A stretch of 64,000 nucleotides of DNA from Candidatus Nomurabacteria bacterium (GTDB lineage Bacteria; Patescibacteriota; Minisyncoccia; Phycocordibacterales; UBA9973): positions 294,606 to 358,605 of the forward strand of contig CAWHSF010000003.1 of assembly GCA_963832025.1 (NCBI GenBank), given 5' to 3'. Both the position numbers and the translations under genes were made by a program. The notes below the pieces were generated by a model, which was not told the origin of the DNA, made no database searches, and saw only the letters and a list, made by a program, of their open reading frames with translations. Of the stretch, positions 18,340-39,576 are shown one piece after another; position 1 is the stretch's first letter, and each line of letters begins with the position of its first letter.

Positions 18340-20442
18340 TTGATGGAACCATCCTTTTTTAAGGAAATGCCGAAGTTTAAGACTCCCGAGGAGGAGCTCG
18401 ATTATTTGCGCGCGCATGTGAAAGCACGTGAAGAAGAATTAATCAGCATTGGGCACATAGAAAATGCAGGAGACAATGCCGCCTCCGAAGTTATCGGCGC
18501 ATATAAAAATATACCGGCAGAGAAACTAATTCATAAAGATAATATTATAAAAGAAAAAGAAGCCAAAGGTATCGTTTTGGCTCTGCGCCCGGAGACTCAC
18601 GACAGTGTGATGGAGGAACTTTTGGGGATTGTAGTTACTAAAGGAGTTCGCAATGCTCTTTCGGTGGCAGAAGAGATGGATAATCCCCATATTGATGATG
18701 ATTTTCACAGAATTCTCATTCAATATTTAAAAACCGGACAAACCATGTTGGATTTTAAAGAAGGCTCGCCGGTTTACAAAGCTCTCAATATGACTCTTTT
18801 TGAAATTACGCTTCCGCCTCCGGCTGAAGGAGGAGATGCAGCGAAAGGTTTTAAAGAATTTATCGGCGCGATGGAACAATTTTACGCCGGCATGCAATCT
18901 ATCGGCGAAGGTAAGTATAACGAAAAAGAAAACTATTTTGTTTTGGAGGTGGGGCTTGGGATGAATACCGACGAGGTAGTGGTTTATGCGGCAATTCCAA
19001 ACAAACATCTATCTCTTTTTGAAAAACAAATCTTGGCTTTTTATCACAATGCAAAGATTCGTGAAGCGACTGACGACTACAATGTTTTCAACGAAAATGG
19101 CAATTCTGTCGGTGCTTATGCTGTCCTTTCTGAGCGTGGAGTGATGCCGATAAAAACCTATGACAATATTGACCATGACCCGATGAATCCGATTTTAAAT
19201 GTTTTTTCTCAATTAAAAACGATCGGCGAAGGTGCCGCGATTCAATTGGTGGTTGTGCCAGCCGGTGAAAAGTTTATCAATGAGTTTCATATGATTCTGG
19301 ACGATGTGAAAGATGGTTATTCGGTCAAACATGCATCCGATAATTTTTATAAGTTCAACAAAGCCTTTTTGAAAGTGGGCAAAGATTTTGTTTTTGGACA
19401 TAAAGAGAAAGAAGAAGAGCCCAAAGAAAAATATATGAAAGGCAGACGCGCGGTAGATGAGGGCGCGGCGGAAAAAATCGGCAACAAAATAAAAAGCACA
19501 ATCATGAAAGCTAATATTCGCGTGGTTGCCTCCGGGCAAACGCTCGAACGTGCCGAAGCTATTTTGCGCGAGATAGAATCTTCCTTCAATCAATTTTCGG
19601 AAGCAGCTAGCAACTCTTTTGTTTTTGAACAAATGAGAGGCAGTGAACTGAAACAACTCTTTCACGATTTTTCTTTTCGTACATTTAAGCCTGATAAGAC
19701 GTTGCCGTTAAATTTAAAAGAATTATCTTCAGTCTTTCATTTCCCAGTAGGTATTGATAGTCAACCACAATTGAAAGAAGCGAAAGCCGGTATCGCTCCG
19801 GCTCCGATAGAGATGGGGCAAACGGGAATTATACTCGGAATAAACAGCTATCGGGGCAGAGATACGGAAATTCACTTGGCGAGAGAAGACCGCATGAGAC
19901 ATTTTTATGTTATCGGTCAGACAGGTACAGGTAAAACGAATATCATGCTCAACATGATTACGCAAGATATAAAAAATGGAGATGGTTGCTGTTATATTGA
20001 CCCGCACGGTACCGATATTCAAACAATTCTTTCTCGTATACCTAAAGAGCGTATTGACGATGTGATTTATTTTGACCCAGCCTATACTGCACGACCGATG
20101 GGGCTTAACATGTTGGAATATGACCCGAGATATCCCGAACAGAAAACATTCGTGGTAAACGAAATGATGGGAATTTTCAATAAACTTTTTGATATGAAAG
20201 TGGGCGGTGGAGCGATGTTTGAACAATATTTTAGAAACAGCGCCTTTCTTGGTGATGGAAGACCCGGAATCCGGCTCAACCTTGCTGGAAATTACCCGTG
20301 TCTTGGCCGACAAAGAATTTCGCGATATGAAACTTGCCCGATGCAAGAACCCAATCATCAAACAATTTTGGATTTCTGCCGAGCAAACAACCGGAGACCA
20401 GTCGCTCGCGAACTTCGTGCCTTATATTTCTTCCAAGTTTGA
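18340..20442 (+). pseudogene. P-loop ATPase of VirB4/TraD/HerA-FtsK (AAA_10/DUF87-like) class with ~450-aa N-terminal domain; N-terminal ORF fragment of a gene interrupted by two compensating 1-nt frameshifts (~20228 +1, ~20446-20479 -1)
   Basis: Walker A HFYVIGQTGTGKTN, YIDPHGT, FDP motifs; true continuation is in frame 2 (20207-20479) then frame 1 (20467-21111). Confidence 0.7.
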
Positions 20443-20466
20443 TAACTTTATTTCAGTAACGATATT

Positions 20467-21111
20467 ATGCGTCCGGTAGTGCTTCAACAAAACTCCGTTT
20501 TCAATTTTAGAAAAATCATGGACGAGAAAAAAATTCTTTTAGTTAATCTTTCCAAAGGAAGATTGGGAGATATTAACGCAAACCTTATCGGTTTGGTATT
20601 GGTCGGCAAGATTCAAATGGCGGCGCTTTCCCGCGTGGATATGTTTGGTAAACCAATGAATGATTTTTATCTATATATCGATGAGTTCCAAAATGTCACC
20701 ACTGATTCCATCGCTTCCATTTTGTCTGAAGCAAGAAAATACAGACTCTCGTTAAATATTGCGCATCAATATATCACTCAACTCGAAGATAATATCAAGA
20801 ATGCTGTCTTTGGGAATGTCGGCTCGATGGCTGTTTTCCGTGTCGGCACCGAAGATGCGACATTTTTGGAACCAAAATTTAAACCGCAATTTACTGCGCA
20901 AGATATAACCAAGCTTGATAATTACAATGCTTATGTAAATATGCTGGTAAATGGTCAGCCAACCAAACCTTTCAATTTAAAAACTCTCGCGCCAGAGGTA
21001 GGCAATGCGGAAATCGTGGATAGTCTAAAAGAACTTTCTTATGTAAAATTTGGTCGTGACCGCGCCGAAGTCGAAGCCGAAATCATGGCGCGATATAGTA
21101 CGATGGAATAA
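20467..21111 (+). pseudogene. C-terminal fragment of the same ATPase (Walker B YIDEFQN region)
   Basis: LYIDEFQNVTTDSIASIL...LNIAHQYITQLED; contiguous with 18340-20442 after frame correction. Confidence 0.7.
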
Positions 21112-21155: not shown

Positions 21156-21198
21156 AATTAATTTTGCAAAAAGAATTTTTTCTGCTAGAATACTTGTT

Positions 21199-21783
21199 AT
21201 GAAACATCCAAAAGAAGAAAGAACATATGTCATGGTCAAGCCAGACGGAGTTCGTAAGGGTCTGACAGGGGAGATTATTAGTCGCTTTGAACAGCGAGAT
21301 TTGAAAATTGTGGCGTTGGAAATGTTTAAACCTTCGCACGACCAATTAGACAATCATTATCCAAAAGACGAGGCTTGGATTACTCGACTCGGCAAAAAAA
21401 CTCTTTCTACCTATGAAAAATATGGCTATGACGCGATGACGGATTTTGGCACAATTGACCCGGTTGTTATCGGTCCAGATATCCGCAAATGGCTGATTGA
21501 TTATATGGAATCTTCTCCATTAGTAAAGATGATTGTGCAAGGAGTTCATGCCGTAGACGTAGTCAGAAAAATTGCTGGTCCAACGATGCCTTATTTGGCA
21601 GAAGTCGGAACAATTCGCGGAGATTTTTCCATTGATAGTCCGGCTCTTGCGAATAAAGAAAAACGCGCGGTGATGAATATTGTACACTGTTCCGAAACTC
21701 CGGAAGAAGCGGAACATGAAATCAAGCACTGGTTTGGCGATATGAAAACTTTTGAATATAAACGCTTTGGAGTAGATGAGTAA
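21199..21783 (+). CDS. ndk: nucleoside diphosphate kinase with ~50-aa internal insertion (194 aa)
   Basis: RTYVMVKPDGVRKGLTGEIISRFEQRDLKIVALEM...NIVHCSE (active-site His). Confidence 0.88.
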   Translation: MKHPKEERTYVMVKPDGVRKGLTGEIISRFEQRDLKIVALEMFKPSHDQLDNHYPKDEAWITRLGKKTLSTYEKYGYDAMTDFGTIDPVVIGPDIRKWLIDYMESSPLVKMIVQGVHAVDVVRKIAGPTMPYLAEVGTIRGDFSIDSPALANKEKRAVMNIVHCSETPEEAEHEIKHWFGDMKTFEYKRFGVDE

Positions 21784-21786
21784 AAC

Positions 21787-22335
21787 ATGTACGAAGTTGA
21801 AGTAAAAGCAAGGTTAAAAAATAGGCAAGAAATTGTAAAAAAACTTGAATCTTTAGGCTGTAAATTTGGAGAAGAACTTCACCAAATTGACCATATTTAT
21901 TTTCCTGAAGGGCTTACTTTTCCTCCACCAATTGGCACTGGTATTTTGAGAGTTCGCAATCAAGGTGATAAATATTTTTTCACCTTAAAAATTTCTCAGT
22001 CTGGCAGACAGGATTCAATTGAAAGAGAATTGGAAGTAAAAGATGGAGAAATGATGATGGAAATTATAAAACTTTTAAAATATCAAGAAGCTCCAACCGT
22101 AAATAAGAAAAGAACTAAAACAAAGTACAAAGATATGGTAATTGAACTTGATACTGTGAAAGATTTGGGAGAATTCATTGAAGTGGAAAAAATTGTCACA
22201 GAAGAAAATCCTGAAGAAAGAAAAAAAATTCAGCAAGACTTAGCTGACTTTATTATTGCTCTAGGTGTTTCCAAAGAAGACCTGATGGTAAACAGCAAAT
22301 ACGATATTATGCTTTTTGAGAAAAATAAAAAATAA
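21787..22335 (+). CDS. CYTH-domain protein (triphosphate tunnel metalloenzyme / class IV adenylyl cyclase-like)
   Basis: N-terminal YEVEVKARL (ExExK), LRVRNQGDKYFFTLK, IEVEKIV motifs. Confidence 0.7.
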   Translation: MYEVEVKARLKNRQEIVKKLESLGCKFGEELHQIDHIYFPEGLTFPPPIGTGILRVRNQGDKYFFTLKISQSGRQDSIERELEVKDGEMMMEIIKLLKYQEAPTVNKKRTKTKYKDMVIELDTVKDLGEFIEVEKIVTEENPEERKKIQQDLADFIIALGVSKEDLMVNSKYDIMLFEKNKK

Positions 22336-22339
22336 ATTT

Positions 22340-22885
22340 ATGGCTGTTAAAATAACTTATTTTGTGCACGGAACAACCACGGACAACGAGAAAGACTTGT
22401 CCACGGGTTGGCTGGGAGGAGAATTATCGGCAAAAGGAATTGGACAAGCCAAAGAACTCGGAACTCTTGTGGCAGATAAACATTTTGATGTTGTGTTTTG
22501 TTCTGACTTAAAAAGAGCGGTTGATTCTGCCGAGCTTGGTTTCGGAGATAAATATGAAATTATTCCAGATGCTCGACTTCGTGAATGTAATTATGGAGAT
22601 AATAATGGGAAATCTATGTTCCTGTGGATAAATTCAAAGACTAAATTTATAGACACCCCGTTTCCTAAGGGAGAAAGTTATTTAGATGTTGAAAAGAGAA
22701 TAAAAGATTTTTTGGATTTTTTAAAAAATAATTATGATGGGAAAAGTGTTGCCATTGTTGCGCATCAAGCTCCGCAACTCGCCTTGGATGTTTTATTAAA
22801 AGGAAAAACTTGGGAACAAGCTTTTGTCGAAGATTGGCGAAACACCCACAGTTGGCAACCAGGATGGGGATATCAATTAGACTAA
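22340..22885 (+). CDS. histidine phosphatase family protein (phosphoglycerate-mutase-like)
   Basis: ITYFVHGTTTDNE (RHG-like catalytic His), RECNYG; start 22340 preferred over 22316. Confidence 0.75.
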   Translation: MAVKITYFVHGTTTDNEKDLSTGWLGGELSAKGIGQAKELGTLVADKHFDVVFCSDLKRAVDSAELGFGDKYEIIPDARLRECNYGDNNGKSMFLWINSKTKFIDTPFPKGESYLDVEKRIKDFLDFLKNNYDGKSVAIVAHQAPQLALDVLLKGKTWEQAFVEDWRNTHSWQPGWGYQLD

Positions 22886-22911
22886 ATTATAATTTCAACT
22901 ATAATCTTTTT

Positions 22912-23355
22912 ATGGATAAAAAAATTTGTGTATATTGTACTAATCCAAGCGTGAAGGAGAGAGAAATAATAAGCAACGAACTTGCGTGGGCTTTTCCGAC
23001 AAATATCCCGATTGTTCCTGGACATATTTTAATATGTCCGATAAGGTGTGTAGCCGATTTTAATGATATGACAAAAGAAGAGGTGACAGCCATCTTTGCT
23101 TTACAAAAAAAGTTAAAAAAAGCCTTGCAAGAAGCATTTAATGCCGAAGGTTTTAATTACGCTTGGAATGAAAACAAAGTGGCTGGGCAAGCAGTCCCTC
23201 ACTTTCATTTGCATATGTTGCCGAGAAAAGAAGGAGACACCGGAATTACTGAATATGATCCAAGAAAATTTCTTTACAGACCAGGGAGTCGAGAAACATC
23301 TCCCGACGAGGAATTAATTGCCGTAGTAGAAGGAATAAAAAAACATTTAGAATAA
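22912..23355 (+). CDS. HIT-family nucleotide hydrolase/transferase
   Basis: HFHLHMLPR histidine triad; start 22912 preferred (22810 start overlaps upstream gene). Confidence 0.85.
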   Translation: MDKKICVYCTNPSVKEREIISNELAWAFPTNIPIVPGHILICPIRCVADFNDMTKEEVTAIFALQKKLKKALQEAFNAEGFNYAWNENKVAGQAVPHFHLHMLPRKEGDTGITEYDPRKFLYRPGSRETSPDEELIAVVEGIKKHLE

Positions 23356-23363
23356 TTATTCTT

Positions 23364-23906
23364 ATGCAAGAAATTGAAACAAAAATTTTGGATGTTAATA
23401 CTGAAGAGATAAAAAAGAAACTAAATTCACTCGGCGCTGAGGAAATTTTAAACACTCGTCTAACGGTAGACTGGTACGGTCCCAAGGGTTTGACGCACGA
23501 CGGAGATGATCCATGGTTTTTAAGAATCAGGACAGATAGAGAGGGGAACAGCGAAGCAACTTGGAAGGGAAATCGTAATTTTAGCGGAGCTTCAAGTTCG
23601 CACAAAGAAATAAATTTGAAAGTTTTAGACAAAAATGCTCTTGGAAATATGTTTTTGGAATTCGGAATGGAGCTTTATGCGCACCAAGAGAAAGATAGAA
23701 TTTCTTTTTCATTAAAAAATTGGCGTTTTGATTTAGACCAGTATCCAGGGATGCCAGCATATCTAGAAATTGAAGGAACGAGTGAAGAAAGTGTGCAAGA
23801 AGCAATAAAATTACTTGGATTGGAAAATAAAATGGCTACACCAAAAGGCGAAAGAGCTGTGATAAAAGATGATTATAATTTGAATTGGTTTGATATGCGT
23901 TTTTAA
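23364..23906 (+). CDS. second CYTH-domain protein
   Basis: EIETKILDV (ExExK), LRIRTD, YLEIEGTSEE motifs. Confidence 0.7.
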   Translation: MQEIETKILDVNTEEIKKKLNSLGAEEILNTRLTVDWYGPKGLTHDGDDPWFLRIRTDREGNSEATWKGNRNFSGASSSHKEINLKVLDKNALGNMFLEFGMELYAHQEKDRISFSLKNWRFDLDQYPGMPAYLEIEGTSEESVQEAIKLLGLENKMATPKGERAVIKDDYNLNWFDMRF

Positions 23907-23949: not shown

Positions 23950-24152
23950 CGTCTAGGTTGCGGAAAAATATTAGGGGAGTATAGTTTAGGTAGGGTTATT
24001 TCTGATTATTACCTAGAACACTAATTTATGGGAGTTTCGATCGAGTTTAGCCTTGGCTCTACACGTCTAACACCCACTTAGCTATTAAGCTATGGTAATA
24101 CATCCGAGATAGTCCTAAGAAGAATTCTCCGCTTCGGTGGAGATTTTTTCTT
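23950..24152 (+). ncRNA. candidate structured RNA / 5' leader of unknown class ending in intrinsic terminator
   Basis: 250-nt gap without ORF; hairpins TAGGTA..TACCTA, TAGCT-ATTA-AGCTA; CTCCGC-TTCG-GTGGAG + T-run at 24124-24152. Confidence 0.25.
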
Positions 24153-24156
24153 TTCA

Positions 24157-25551
24157 ATGAGATATAATACAAGAATGGAAAAAGATATCGGAGGAACAGT
24201 TAAATTGACATTTTATGGAGGTACTGGCTCGGTAACGGGTGCAAATTTTCTTTTAGAAATTGATGGTAAGAGAATTTTAGTTGATTGCGGACTTACTCAA
24301 GGAGCAAAAGTGGCTGATGATATAAACTGGGACCCCTTTACGTACAATCCAAAGGAAATAGACATTCTTTTCGTAACTCACGCTCATGTGGACCATTTAG
24401 GTAGAGTGCCAAAACTGATACAAGAAGGATTTCGTGGAAAAATTTATTCCACTGAACCGACCAAAGGTCTTGCCACGCCAATGCTCGAAGACACTGCCGA
24501 GATTTTGAGCAAAAATACAGATTTGGGTTTGGATAAAATTTATTCAGCCGAAAATATAAAACTGGCATTGTCGCTCTGGCAAGGTTTTAAGTATCACGAA
24601 AATATAAATATCACTCCGAAAGTCACGGTGAACTTTTTAAATGCCGGACATATTTTAGGTTCGGCCATGGTTGAATTTATTTATAACGGAAAGAAAATTG
24701 TTTTTACCGGAGACTTGGGTAATAGTCCTTCGCCTATATTACCAGACACAGATAAGGTGACCGATGCGGATTATTTAGTTATGGAAAGTGTGTATGGCGA
24801 TAGAAATCATGAATCCAGAAATGAACGTCAAAAGTTTTTAGCAGAAACGATTCAGGATAATTATAAGAGAAAAGGAACGCTTATCATCCCGACTTTTTCC
24901 CTGGAACGTTCACAAGAACTTCTCTTTGAGCTTGATGGGCTTGTGACCAATGACCGTATTCCAGTCATGCCGATTTTTTTTGATTCTCCTTTAGCTATCC
25001 GTCTGACCGATGTTTTTAAACAATACAAAAGTTACTTCAACGAAGCGGCGCAAAACGCCATTTCTTCTAAAGAATATTTATTTAATTTCCCGGGTCTGCA
25101 TAGCACTTTGCGCTCGGAGGAATCCAAAATGATTGATACCGTACCAAATCCCAAAATAGTTATCGCCGGTTCCGGTATGTCGACCGGTGGACGTGTGGTG
25201 CATCATGAAAAACATTATTTACCGGACCCAAACAACACCTTATTGTTGACTGGCTATCAATCTGTCGGAACCCCCGGACGTTTGATTGAAGAAGGAATGA
25301 AGACTGTACGTATTTCCGGAGAAGAAGTGGTGGTTCGTTCACACGTTGTTGTAATATCTGGATATTCTGGCCATAAAGACTCTGACCACCTACTCCAATT
25401 TGTGGAAGACATGCAGGATAAAGTGAAACAAATTTTTGTGGTGATGGGAGAACCAAAATCCGAAATGTTTTTGGTACAAAAAATTCGTGACAACTTGGGT
25501 CTCAATGCTTCTGCGCCAGAGCAGGGAAGCAGTGTAATATTAAATTTCTAA
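24157..25551 (+). CDS. MBL-fold beta-CASP ribonuclease (RNase J / CPSF-like)
   Basis: FVTHAHVDHLGRVP motif 2, GDLGNSPSP, beta-CASP length ~460 aa. Confidence 0.8.
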   Translation: MRYNTRMEKDIGGTVKLTFYGGTGSVTGANFLLEIDGKRILVDCGLTQGAKVADDINWDPFTYNPKEIDILFVTHAHVDHLGRVPKLIQEGFRGKIYSTEPTKGLATPMLEDTAEILSKNTDLGLDKIYSAENIKLALSLWQGFKYHENINITPKVTVNFLNAGHILGSAMVEFIYNGKKIVFTGDLGNSPSPILPDTDKVTDADYLVMESVYGDRNHESRNERQKFLAETIQDNYKRKGTLIIPTFSLERSQELLFELDGLVTNDRIPVMPIFFDSPLAIRLTDVFKQYKSYFNEAAQNAISSKEYLFNFPGLHSTLRSEESKMIDTVPNPKIVIAGSGMSTGGRVVHHEKHYLPDPNNTLLLTGYQSVGTPGRLIEEGMKTVRISGEEVVVRSHVVVISGYSGHKDSDHLLQFVEDMQDKVKQIFVVMGEPKSEMFLVQKIRDNLGLNASAPEQGSSVILNF

Positions 25552-25648
25552 TTACAAAAAGGATAGAACATTTTAGGGCACAGATATTTTTTTGCTAAAA
25601 AATTCTTCCTGCTCGCGCCGTTGCACTGCGCAAGTCCCTAAAATGTTC
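25546..25648. repeat. 23-bp perfect inverted repeat AAAAAGGATAGAACATTTTAGGG / CCCTAAAATGTTCTATCCTTTTT around 56-nt spacer
   Basis: Read directly; overlaps stop of RNase J-like gene; no T-run. Confidence 0.6.
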
Positions 25649-25705
25649 TATCCTTTTTGCTGCAATTTTGTTGTCCGACAAGGATGTTTATGCTACACTA
25701 ACGAA

Positions 25706-26324
25706 ATGAATTTAAGTGAATTGAATAATAAACACGGACACAACCAAATCAAAATCTGTGTCTCCGGTGCAGCGGAGACGGGTCATTGCGGAATCGGAGC
25801 GTTAGACTTAGCTAAAGAACTAGGACGGGAAATTGCTCGCCAAGGCGCGGTGTTGGTGACGGGAGCAACGACAGGATTTCCTTTCTGGGCTGCGATGGGC
25901 GCCAAAGAAGAAGGCGGAATTTCCATCGGTATCTCTCCGGCAGCTTCGGAGCGTGAACACGTGGAAGTTTACAAACTCCCGATAGATTACATGGATTTGA
26001 TTATTTATACCGGCTTTGGTTACCCCGGTCGCGATCTTTTACTGACTCGTAGTTCTGATGCTGTCGTACTGCGGTTGTGGGCGAATCGGCACGATTCATG
26101 AGTTTACGGTTGCCTTTGAAGACCAAAAACCAATCGGTATATTTGAAGGTCCTTGGGAGATGAGCGCGGAACTCGAAGAAATAATAGCGAAAGGACATCG
26201 CCCGGATCCGAAAATTGTTCACAGCCCCGACCCCAAAAAACTTCTTGAAGAAGTGATTGCTTTGGTGAAGAAAGACAAAATTGAATACAAAGCTTCCAAA
26301 CCCTCTAGTTCTCCTGTGCAATAA
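25706..26324 (+). CDS. TIGR00725/LOG-like (SLOG Rossmann) protein, interrupted by 1-nt frameshift near 26068
   Basis: ICVSGAAETG...VLVTGATTGFPFWAAMGA; second frame continues CGCGRIGTIHEFTVAFEDQKPIGIFEG. Confidence 0.65.
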
Positions 26325-31178: not shown

Positions 31179-31252
31179 CCGTCCTTAGCTCAGCTGGTTA
31201 GAGCACAGAGCTTATACCTCTGGGGTCCTTGGTTCGAATCCAAGAGGACGGA
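31179..31252 (+). tRNA. tRNA with anticodon UAU (Ile2-type AUA decoder), C1:G72 acceptor end
   Basis: Cloverleaf: acceptor CCGUCCU/AGGACGG, D GCUC/GAGC, anticodon stem CAGAG/CUCUG loop CUUAUAC, T CUUGG-UUCGAAU-CCAAG. Confidence 0.75.
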
Positions 31253-31267
31253 CAAGCAAATAAATTT

Positions 31268-39263: not shown

Positions 39264-39277
39264 GTAAATTTAAAGTG

Positions 39278-39364
39278 CGGAGAGAGAGGGATTCGAACCC
39301 TCGGTCCTTTTAAGGGGACGACAGTTTAGTAAACTGTTGGTTTAAACCACTCACCCATCTCTCC
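39278..39364 (-). tRNA. type-II (long variable arm) tRNA, Ser-like, anticodon loop UUACUAA (apparent ACU anticodon, atypical)
   Basis: rc: GGAGAGA-UG-GGU..ACC-A-ACAGU-UUACUAA-ACUGU-long arm-CGAGGGUUCGAAUCCCUC-UCUCUCC-G. Confidence 0.6.
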
Positions 39365-39454: not shown

Positions 39455-39543
39455 GGAGCCGTGTCAGAGCGGTCTAACGTACCTCTTTGCTAAAGAGGCA
39501 GGGGCTTCAAAACCCCTCGGCGGTTCGAATCCGCCCGGCTCCG
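39455..39543 (+). tRNA. tRNA-Ser (anticodon GCU), type II
   Basis: acceptor GGAGCCG/CGGCUCC, anticodon stem CCUCU/AGAGG loop UUGCUAA, long variable arm, T GGCGG-UUCGAAU-CCGCC; D-arm non-canonical. Confidence 0.7.
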
Positions 39544-39576
39544 CAGCTAATATTTCTTCTGTGTTATACTCAAAAG

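Follow-up and report, generated by a model that had tools for sequence, protein, structure and literature searches.

Two CYTH proteins, a HIT protein and a variable slot of nucleotide enzymes in a Candidatus Nomurabacteria genome

The five genes at the locus

The subject of this report is a block of five genes in a 64,000 nt stretch of DNA from a Candidatus Nomurabacteria bacterium (Patescibacteriota; contig CAWHSF010000003.1, positions 294,606 to 358,605). This whole stretch is called the window, and positions are counted from its first base. Between positions 21199 and 23906 on the plus strand lie five co-directional open reading frames (ORFs). In order, these encode a nucleoside diphosphate kinase (NDK), a triphosphate tunnel metalloenzyme (TTM) of the CYTH superfamily (CYTH1), a branch-1 histidine phosphatase, a histidine triad (HIT) protein, and a second CYTH protein (CYTH2). 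The features are listed in Table 1. A sequence-only reading of the locus had proposed these five consecutive same-strand genes, and the layout is borne out by the ORF list and by a Logan contig, L001, from a separate assembly, which is 99.93% identical over 5.7 kb and has the same five genes. The organisms with the nearest homologues also point to a Patescibacterium of the Nomurabacteria/Paceibacterota type. Gene calls on L001 correct two of the starts, placing that of the phosphatase at the ATG at 22340 and that of the HIT protein at the ATG at 22912. The assignments proposed for the five products also hold in the profile check, all five scoring above the Pfam thresholds used for domain assignment.

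Table 1. Positions of the genes, sites and RNAs discussed in the text. Plain numbers are window positions; numbers after an L handle are positions in the locus of a relative.
Feature	Position	Strand	Basis or remark
NDK, long archaeal-type form, 194 aa	21199..21783	+	PF00334; 1XQI match
CYTH1, single-domain TTM, archaeal SaTTM/PH1012 type	21787..22335	+	PF01928, TIGR00318, PDB matches
Branch-1 histidine phosphatase (dPGM/CobC/PspA-like), 181 aa	22340..22885	+	PF00300, PDB matches
HIT-family nucleotide hydrolase/transferase, nearest the Fhit branch	22912..23355	+	PF01230, PDB matches
CYTH2, divergent TTM	23364..23906	+	PF01928, AlphaFold2 model, Foldseek, hhalign
Promoter-like site TTGCAA-16-TAGAAT with extended TG	21163..21191	+	Consensus scan; 8 nt 5′ of ndk; weak
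Promoter-like match in the 26-nt spacer 5′ of the HIT gene	22878-22905	+	Consensus scan, 10/12
DUF8128/TraG-D_C type IV coupling-protein-like gene (upstream anchor)	18340..21111	+	Pfam TraG-D_C, TrwB, DUF87; PF26449 on orthologues; synteny
Conserved structured RNA, ~165 nt	~23990..24153	+	Alignment A6, RNAalifold; in the 250-nt spacer after CYTH2
Promoter-like hexamers of the RNA, TTGCGG-17-TATAGT	~23957-23986	+	Conserved
Intrinsic terminator of the RNA	24126-24153	+	Covarying GC hairpin and U-run
β-CASP/MBL ribonuclease, RNase J/aCPSF1-like (downstream anchor)	24157..25551	+	Beta-Casp 118.9 bits, RMMBL; aCPSF1 304 bits, below its cut-off
SLOG cluster-4 (LDcluster4) gene	25592-26324	+	Frameshift near 26072 in the window
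CYTH3 in relatives	L005:3602-4195, L007:3830-4393, L018:3322-3885, L023:4131-4742, L026:2186-2647, L027:2258-2833, L120:1794-2348
Short NDK in relatives	L027:2896-3417, L118:2128-2655, L119:4447-4977, L120:2387-2914	- (L119)	173-176 aa
ParE toxin with small upstream ORF, in slot	L003:5727-5996
IS200-like Y1 transposase in five slots	L005:2948-3592, L018:5239-5967, L026:4593-5306, L027:4621-5295, L111:4281-4970
tRNA-Ile UAU call	31179-31253	+	ARAGORN
tRNA-Ser ACU call	39277-39364	-	ARAGORN
tRNA-Ser GCU call	39455-39544	+	ARAGORN

The genes are separated by 3, 4, 26 and 8 nt, in gene order, and the block is probably an operon. The locus is part of the core chromosome: adk-map and a coupling-protein-like gene lie on one side, and a β-CASP RNase gene, a SLOG gene, rplT-infC, smpB and the tmRNA gene on the other. 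The GC content is 0.43 in ndk and 0.31–0.38 in the stretch from CYTH1 to CYTH2. When proteins are clustered at 90% identity, the NDK falls in a cluster of 154 members, named NDK, and the other four proteins are singletons.

The NDK matches PF00334 in two stretches (E 2.5e-35). It aligns without gaps over residues 7–184 to 1XQI, the 195-aa NDK of Pyrobaculum aerophilum (E 1.8e-53), with which it also shares the catalytic His. The active-site residues are kept in the translation and in the alignments to 1XQI and 3vvt, as follows: K14 in VKPDG, R140 in TIRGDF, and N160 and H163 in NIVHCSE. The insertion of about 50 aa that had been ascribed to this NDK is present as extra residues, but these form two segments, about 40 aa at residues 57–97 and about 10 aa at residues 154–163, relative to ordinary NDKs. 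Both segments are common to 1XQI, so the "insertion" is an already solved long form, the comparison being drawn from the PDB alignment alone. The window NDK differs from 1XQI in that its long form sits in a bacterium. In four relatives, a short, ordinary NDK, 33–38% identical, takes the place of the long one. Inside a conserved slot, then, one type of NDK has displaced the other.

The phosphatase scores 98.1 bits against His_Phos_1 (PF00300), and its closest PDB matches are CobC (6nru, 7.9e-10) and PspA (4ij5, 8.9e-10). The core residues H10, R59, E82 and H142 are conserved, and the last three of them are invariant in alignment A3. Like CobC, PspA and PhoE, the protein has the nucleophilic His and, in the phosphate pocket, a second Arg, the proton-donor Glu and a second His. 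The window protein differs from these enzymes in being short and in having Val in place of the Arg of the RHG motif, which reads VHG (VHGTT). V-H-G is found in 64 of the 65 orthologues with a readable motif, in 63 of them as VHGTT, and two loci from Doudnabacteria have Ala at the position of the motif Arg. Judged from these sequences, VHG is a trait of a Patescibacteria-wide family of short histidine phosphatases (loci L031-L110).

The HIT protein scores 77.9 bits against PF01230 and 29.7 bits against DcpS_C. Homologues number 1559 at E ≤ 1e-10. Over the catalytic core, the best PDB matches are to Fhit (9uch, 2.3e-19; 1fhi, 1.6e-18), and the triad H-F-H-L-H-M-L is intact and aligns to the H-V-H-V-H-I/V-L of Fhit. 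In a ranking of sequence matches, which is not a phylogeny, the Fhit entries (2.3e-19 to 2e-17) come before Ap4A phosphorylase (about 1e-10) and the Hint-type proteins (1e-8 to 1e-3). Since the nearest relative, Fhit, is an Ap3A hydrolase, ApnA hydrolysis is a plausible activity. The window protein differs from Fhit in other respects. Its N-terminus carries a CxxC of the kind usual in bacterial HIT proteins that resemble Hint. It scores 52 bits against the model for the actinobacterial HIT-type ATP adenylyltransferase, a comparable score that is nevertheless far below the cut-off of that model. Finally, the HIT gene is often paired with a CYTH gene. Literature searches on CYTH and HIT contexts returned no description of a HIT–CYTH pairing, nor was a paper found on this gene cluster in Patescibacteria.

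The two CYTH proteins

CYTH1 is a clear member of its superfamily, with 71.2 bits against PF01928 (cut-off 23.2). Its best PDB matches, PH1012 (2dc4, 2.1e-15) and SaTTM (7ns8, 2.2e-10), align over nearly the full length. CYTH2 scores only 25.6 bits against the same profile, a marginal value. It has 619 homologues at E ≤ 1e-5, nearly all of about 180 aa. An AlphaFold2 (AF2) model of CYTH2, built from 33 homologues, has a mean pLDDT of 95.0, and the best PDB matches of this model in Foldseek are the SaTTM entries 7nsf, 7nsd and 7ns9, with E values of 3.5e-11 to 5.5e-11 and query TM-scores (TMq) of 0.80–0.81. PH1012, Pfu-838710 and then the class IV adenylate cyclase of Yersinia follow. It is this match of the model to SaTTM that secures the predicted CYTH fold of CYTH2, an eight-stranded β-barrel tunnel, despite the weak Pfam score; thus, the CYTH assignments proposed for both genes stand. 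CYTH1 and CYTH2 are 25% identical, and hhalign relates their families with a probability of 96%. By these sequence measures, they are old paralogues.

The motifs of the tunnel are present in both proteins: ExExK, which binds metal and substrate, the basic RxR and Lys/Arg residues of the tunnel lining, and the acidic ExE of the last strands. In CYTH1, E3-V-E5-V-K7 lies at the extreme N-terminus, followed by I-L-R55-V-R57 and E132-V-E134. The ExExK motif, R55, R57, K68, K107, R109, E132 and E134 are invariant in 12 orthologues. CYTH2 has E3-I-E5-T-K7, W51-F52-L-R54-I-R56 and E135-I-E137. In alignments of 33–37 sequences, E3, E5, R54, R56, K68, K110, R112 and E137 are invariant, and K7 and E135 are kept in at least 90%.

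The sequence-only reading had allowed that these enzymes might convert a nucleoside triphosphate (NTP) to a cyclic nucleoside monophosphate (cNMP). Annotation resources point the same way: CYTH1 scores 78.9 bits against the NCBIfam model TIGR00318, "class IV adenylate cyclase", above its cut-off of 57.95, and many CYTH2 homologues are named "adenylate cyclase class 2" by JGI. Class IV cyclases are distinguished from the hydrolases by three determinants, as follows: an HF that precedes ExExK by four residues (HFxxxxExExK), a small neutral residue where xRxR has its first Arg, and a final Ala that turns ExE into ExA (Vogt et al. 2021, PMC8233210). Neither window protein has any of the three. No HF precedes ExExK, as both proteins start two residues before the motif (MYEVEVK and MQEIETK), and the orthologues likewise. 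The first Arg of xRxR (R55 in CYTH1, R54 in CYTH2) is kept and invariant, the small residue of the cyclases not being present. ExA is not present either, the second Glu of ExE (E134 in CYTH1, E137 in CYTH2) being invariant. The cyclase reading of CYTH1 and CYTH2 was rejected on these three motif criteria, and their lack makes the synthesis of a cAMP-like product unlikely. An ExExK without HF, both Arg residues of RxR, and ExE together predict that CYTH1 and CYTH2 are triphosphate hydrolases.

Among enzymes that have been characterised, the nearest is SaTTM (Saci_0718). Formerly annotated as a cyclase, it is a Mg-dependent γ-phosphohydrolase that acts on tripolyphosphate (PPPi) about 19 times better than on NTP and forms no cNMP (PMC8233210). 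Like SaTTM, PH1012, PH1819 and Pfu-838710, the archaeal enzymes of cluster 3 in Vogt et al. 2021, the window proteins are single-domain CYTHs of about 180 aa with an N-terminal ExExK, RxR and ExE, and the strong preference of SaTTM for PPPi over NTP as a γ-phosphohydrolase is the activity we would predict for them. They differ from the archaeal TTMs in being bacterial, CYTH2 being just 18–25% identical, and in that Patescibacteria carry two or three divergent paralogues side by side. The class IV cyclases, CyaB of Aeromonas and YpAC-IV of Yersinia pestis, share the fold (TMq 0.71–0.77 for the CYTH2 model against 2fjt, 3n10 and 3n0z), but their specific determinants are those missing from CYTH1 and CYTH2. 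In our view, the cyclase names attached to CYTH1 through TIGR00318 and to the CYTH2 homologues by JGI are misleading. Hundreds of Patescibacterial CYTH proteins that are named "adenylate cyclase", or that pass the cyaB model, carry the hydrolase determinants without those of the cyclases. This is likely a systematic misannotation, here corrected, and cAMP signalling should not be inferred for Patescibacterial genomes from such CYTH genes.

The residue two positions before RxR varies among these enzymes. It is Phe or Tyr in the CYTH2 family, Ile or Val in CYTH1, Ala in SaTTM, and Trp in the mammalian thiamine triphosphatase (ThTPase). In the HMMER alignment, F52 of CYTH2, which is Tyr in several homologues, lies opposite A54 of SaTTM, the position of which corresponds to W53 of ThTPase (PMC8233210). 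A W/YxRxR motif, the aromatic residue of which stacks on the thiazolium ring, marks the ThTPase cluster (cluster 8) and one other cluster, of the plant TTM1/2 type, whose members are not ThTPases (PMC8233210); the Phe of CYTH2 differs from the published Trp or Tyr. The 25-kDa mammalian ThTPase, THTPA, resembles the window proteins and their relatives in the CYTH fold and in an aromatic residue two positions before RxR (Phe or Tyr in CYTH2, Trp in CYTH3). The differences are that the CYTH2 model reaches a TMq of just 0.52–0.64 against the mouse and human enzymes, that the CYTH2 aromatic is not Trp, and that a thiamine context is lacking.

A third paralogue, CYTH3, lies directly 3′ of the type IV coupling-protein (T4CP)-like gene in several relatives and is not in the window. 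It is 25–30% identical to CYTH2, and in three aligned sequences (L005, L007 and L027) it reads W-L-R-L-R, an exact W-x-R-x-R.

A variable slot and the HIT–CYTH2 pair

The five genes lie in a slot between the DUF8128/T4CP-like gene and the β-CASP RNase gene, the content of which differs among relatives. A survey anchored on CYTH2, with one genome per species, yielded 29 loci. The same slot was found in 12, making 13 slots with that of the window. Of these 13, 12 have NDK, 7 have CYTH1, 3 have the phosphatase, and only that of the window has HIT. Composition varies across the 16 complete slots examined in all. Other occupants are NUDIX, HD/YfbR-like, Maf, HAD and CYTH3 genes and a long adenylate kinase gene (in L005, L014 and L111). 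The slot content is drawn largely from nucleotide-pool enzymes, and to that extent the nucleotide and phosphoanhydride theme of the sequence-only reading stands; what does not is its dedicated signalling pathway. In the remainder of the 64-kb window, no homologue of NUDIX, HD, Maf or the long adenylate kinase and no remnant of DUF2238 was found, apart from one stray 43-residue match to the Maf query inside ndk. The NDK is a slowly evolving resident of the slot, given its 154-member cluster at 90% identity.

The arrangement of the five genes is seldom repeated. The full order occurs in the window, in its Logan contig, and in one other genome, L118, which has a short NDK, a small unannotated ORF, CYTH1, the phosphatase, HIT and CYTH2. 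Partial versions are CYTH3, short NDK, CYTH1, HIT and CYTH2 in L120, and adenylate kinase, CYTH1, CYTH1, phosphatase, transposase, HIT and HAD in L111. The phosphatase has an essentially random context: in 80 metagenome loci of its orthologues (61–74% identity), 30 of which extend at least 1 kb on both sides, a CYTH gene is nearby in 2, any of the nucleotide-enzyme families used as queries in 5, and no neighbour family in more than 5. Thus, the five genes are not a conserved, co-inherited operon, and the dedicated, co-conserved five-gene pathway that had been proposed is not supported, with one other genome having the full order, CYTH near the phosphatase in 2 of 80 loci, and HIT in none of the 29 CYTH2 loci.

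The lack of co-conservation holds for the phosphatase and largely for CYTH1, but not for the HIT–CYTH2 pair. A further survey, anchored on HIT, gave ten further contexts, or 11 with the window. In six of the 11, HIT is followed directly by CYTH2, and three of these (L113, L117 and L121) lie outside the slot. The CYTH2 orthologues that follow HIT are 47–68% identical and begin after a gap of 1–19 nt, and those of the three loci outside the slot keep PW[FY]LR[IV]R and ExE. Of the parts of the block, HIT–CYTH2 alone turns up again in different genomic surroundings. When CYTH2 lies outside the slot, a gene for a nucleotide enzyme or a phosphohydrolase is its immediate neighbour in 10 of 13 contexts; among these neighbours are one NDK, one HD, one UMP kinase, three histidine phosphatase, two dCTP deaminase and three HIT genes.

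On balance, and with confidence only slightly above even, we read the block as a locally assembled cassette of independent housekeeping enzymes of the nucleotide pool and of phosphoanhydrides, placed in a variable slot, with a conserved HIT–CYTH2 core. All five proteins keep their catalytic residues, allowing for VHG in place of RHG in the phosphatase. The activities would be as follows. The Fhit-like HIT protein would attack the α-phosphate of dinucleoside and nucleoside polyphosphates, such as Ap3A, Ap4A, p4A and like compounds that aminoacyl-tRNA synthetases and ligases form as by-products. Acting through a nucleotidyl-histidine intermediate, it would release a nucleoside monophosphate and a leaving group bearing the polyphosphate. 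CYTH2 and, separately, CYTH1 would take the terminal phosphate off tripolyphosphate or an organic triphosphate by the two-metal mechanism of TTMs. NDK would re-equilibrate nucleoside diphosphates and NTPs, and the VHG phosphatase would remove a phosphomonoester from some substrate. An organism that relies on salvaged nucleotides would probably benefit by regaining usable nucleotides and by clearing polyphosphates that are inhibitory. The proposed coupling of HIT to CYTH2, in which CYTH2 would hydrolyse the triphosphate left by HIT, is suggested by the chemistry of the two families.

Several observations weigh against the cassette reading. Seen from CYTH2, pairing with HIT is a minority arrangement, with HIT adjacent in 0 of the 29 species loci. 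The slot also holds unrelated cargo, namely a ParE toxin, an ABC1 kinase, an IS200-like transposase, small unknown ORFs and membrane proteins, so that some of the clustering may be owed to insertion at a hot spot rather than to a common function. Promoter and terminator scans of the region gave no more matches than expected from shuffled sequence. We infer the substrates of all five proteins, and the VHG substitution may alter or weaken the activity of the phosphatase. Finally, a TTM that hydrolysed NTPs beside NDK would be futile, which speaks against canonical NTPs as the substrates of the CYTHs.

The best-surviving alternative, a possibility we take seriously while thinking it rather unlikely, is that unrelated accessory genes have been juxtaposed in an insertion-prone slot, having strand alone in common and no functional coupling, that of HIT and CYTH2 included. 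The slot is highly variable, and the mobile or selfish cargo found in some genomes (the transposase in five slots, the ParE toxin and the ABC1 kinase) suggests an insertion hot spot. The fall in GC content after ndk, the four singletons beside the 154-member NDK cluster, and the random neighbours of the phosphatase are all as this explanation would have them. In contrast, the order of HIT and CYTH2 and their short gap are the same in three other genomic contexts. Moreover, nucleotide or phosphohydrolase enzymes make up the majority of the slot occupants, and also of the CYTH2 neighbours outside the slot, whereas the phosphatase-anchored loci, which serve as a control, show such enzymes in just 5 of 80 cases.

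It is doubtful, but not far-fetched, that Patescibacteria have in HIT–CYTH2 a dedicated module that processes a single organic polyphosphate in two steps. HIT would split an adenylylated conjugate (p4A, Ap4A or adenosine thiamine triphosphate), and the aromatic-lined tunnel of CYTH2 would hydrolyse the organic or inorganic triphosphate so released. Were this true, CYTH2 would be the first bacterial CYTH to have an organic triphosphate as its defined substrate, perhaps thiamine triphosphate (ThTP).

Thiamine polyphosphate salvage is a speculative proposal that we consider improbable. Here CYTH2, and CYTH3 in relatives, would be a bacterial ThTPase, and HIT would be the missing hydrolase of adenosine thiamine triphosphate (AThTP), yielding AMP and thiamine diphosphate (ThDP), so that triphosphorylated thiamine is returned to the cofactor ThDP. 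Adenylate kinase forms ThTP as a by-product, and an as yet unidentified hydrolase converts AThTP to ThDP and AMP (PMC8615392). This is the regiochemistry expected of a Fhit-type enzyme. The long adenylate kinase shares the slot in three genomes, and the aromatic residue of CYTH2 stands at the W/Y position of W/YxRxR, with CYTH3 reading W-L-R-L-R. However, one aromatic residue is thin evidence, and plant TTM1/2 proteins share the motif without being ThTPases. The CYTH2 model is far nearer to SaTTM than to the mouse and human ThTPases, and no thiamine-related gene was seen in any neighbourhood.

Slightly less probable still is a dedicated five-enzyme pathway for a signalling nucleotide, in which one CYTH acts as a class IV-like nucleotide cyclase. 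The TIGR00318 score of CYTH1, the JGI names of the CYTH2 homologues and the single recurrence of the full gene order, in L118, speak for it. Against it are the missing HF, Arg-to-small replacement and ExA of both CYTHs, and the lack of cNMP formation by SaTTM, which is of the same archaeal cluster and was once annotated as a cyclase. In addition, the five genes are not co-conserved, and no gene for a cNMP receptor or effector was found among the slot genes scanned against Pfam.

Very improbable is a role in RNA 5′-end processing, with the CYTHs as Cet1-like RNA 5′-triphosphatases that prepare transcripts for the β-CASP RNase and HIT as a decapping or de-adenylylating enzyme. Within the slot, no other enzyme gene ever comes between CYTH2 and the RNase; HIT matches the DcpS_C profile; and NUDIX genes, the family type of RppH, occur in the same slot. 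However, an RNA gene bearing a terminator, and usually also a gene for a DUF2238 membrane protein, lies between CYTH2 and the RNase, and the CYTH2 model fits Cet1 poorly (TMq 0.43). A functional link of CYTH2 to the β-CASP RNase was rejected, as the association holds inside the conserved slot only, the RNase gene accompanying CYTH2 in 0 of 13 contexts outside it. Equally remote is an anti-phage or conflict island whose enzymes deplete or destroy nucleotides or nucleotide signals in defence or counter-defence: the variability of the slot, the toxin-antitoxin gene and transposase of some genomes, the "Anti-Pycsar Apyc1" label on the neighbouring metallo-β-lactamase (MBL) protein with a SLOG-domain gene next to it, and a weak similarity of HIT to ThsC in PADLOC (33 bits) favour it, but PADLOC models match none of NDK, CYTH1, the phosphatase and CYTH2, the ThsC match is a generic family similarity, PHROGs gives no annotated viral family and unannotated ones for the phosphatase and HIT only, the β-CASP/SLOG pair belongs to a conserved core flank beside rplT-infC-smpB, and the HIT and CYTH2 families are widespread, near single-copy and housekeeping-like.

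Under the cassette reading, the variable slot illustrates how bacteria with reduced genomes and a dependence on nucleotide salvage rearrange a limited set of NDK, TTM, HIT, NUDIX, HD, Maf and adenylate kinase genes. Few physiological substrates have been established for bacterial CYTH enzymes, and the recurring HIT–CYTH2 pair offers a concrete target for coupled assays. The advance is incremental: all five proteins come from well-known superfamilies, and the arrangement is one of ordinary families in a lineage-specific, variable order. The modest new points are the HIT–CYTH2 module and the VHG phosphatase family, to which the unplanned find of the downstream RNA is added.

Flanking genes and a conserved downstream RNA

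In all relatives, the T4CP-like gene that forms the upstream edge of the slot is one uninterrupted ORF of about 920 aa. A tblastn comparison with the orthologue of L006 shows that the window copy has two compensating frameshifts, near 20250 and 20465, that leave about 215 nt out of frame, with an in-frame stop at 20440. Because the same assembly shows indels relative to the independent contig, the break is probably an assembly artefact. On the other side, the β-CASP RNase and SLOG cluster-4 genes are a strictly conserved pair 3′ of the slot in all slot loci. The SLOG gene, frameshifted in the window, is intact in L001 and in all relatives (205–243 aa). The precomputed Pfam labels of the β-CASP RNase include "Anti-Pycsar Apyc1", which probably reflects overlap within the MBL fold only.

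The spacer between CYTH2 and the β-CASP RNase gene holds a conserved structured RNA. Located by an exact 15-mer and aligned in A6, it is nearly unchanged at the nucleotide level in 20 loci, the proteins of which are only 50–65% identical. RNAalifold gives a consensus of 52 pairs, 17 of them with compensatory changes. In a refined structure, 96.5% of cells are paired, as against 40–49% with slid partners, and 19 pairs have double changes, as against 3–8 in the slid controls; the observed values are reached by 0 of 500 shuffles. Searches of Rfam gave no match at the gathering threshold and noise alone at E ≤ 1, the core motif was not found in viral contigs and is single-copy in the window, and a literature search found no paper on a Patescibacterial 6S RNA.

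The RNA marks the 3′ edge of the slot. It always precedes DUF2238/β-CASP, whatever gene lies upstream of it (HAD in L111, HD in L023, an unknown gene in L119), and so belongs to the downstream flank rather than the enzyme cassette. The helix that closes it adjoins the terminator but does not overlap it, an arrangement that fits a separate small RNA (6S-like or protein-binding) better than a riboswitch. A leader of the DUF2238/β-CASP operon is the alternative candidate.

Three tRNA calls were also made by ARAGORN in the window, for tRNA-Ile UAU, tRNA-Ser ACU and tRNA-Ser GCU. The GCU call overlaps the start of an ORF and has no Rfam confirmation at the gathering threshold. tRNA-Ile UAU and tRNA-Ser ACU are unusual for bacteria, in which AUA is normally read by a lysidine-modified CAU tRNA.

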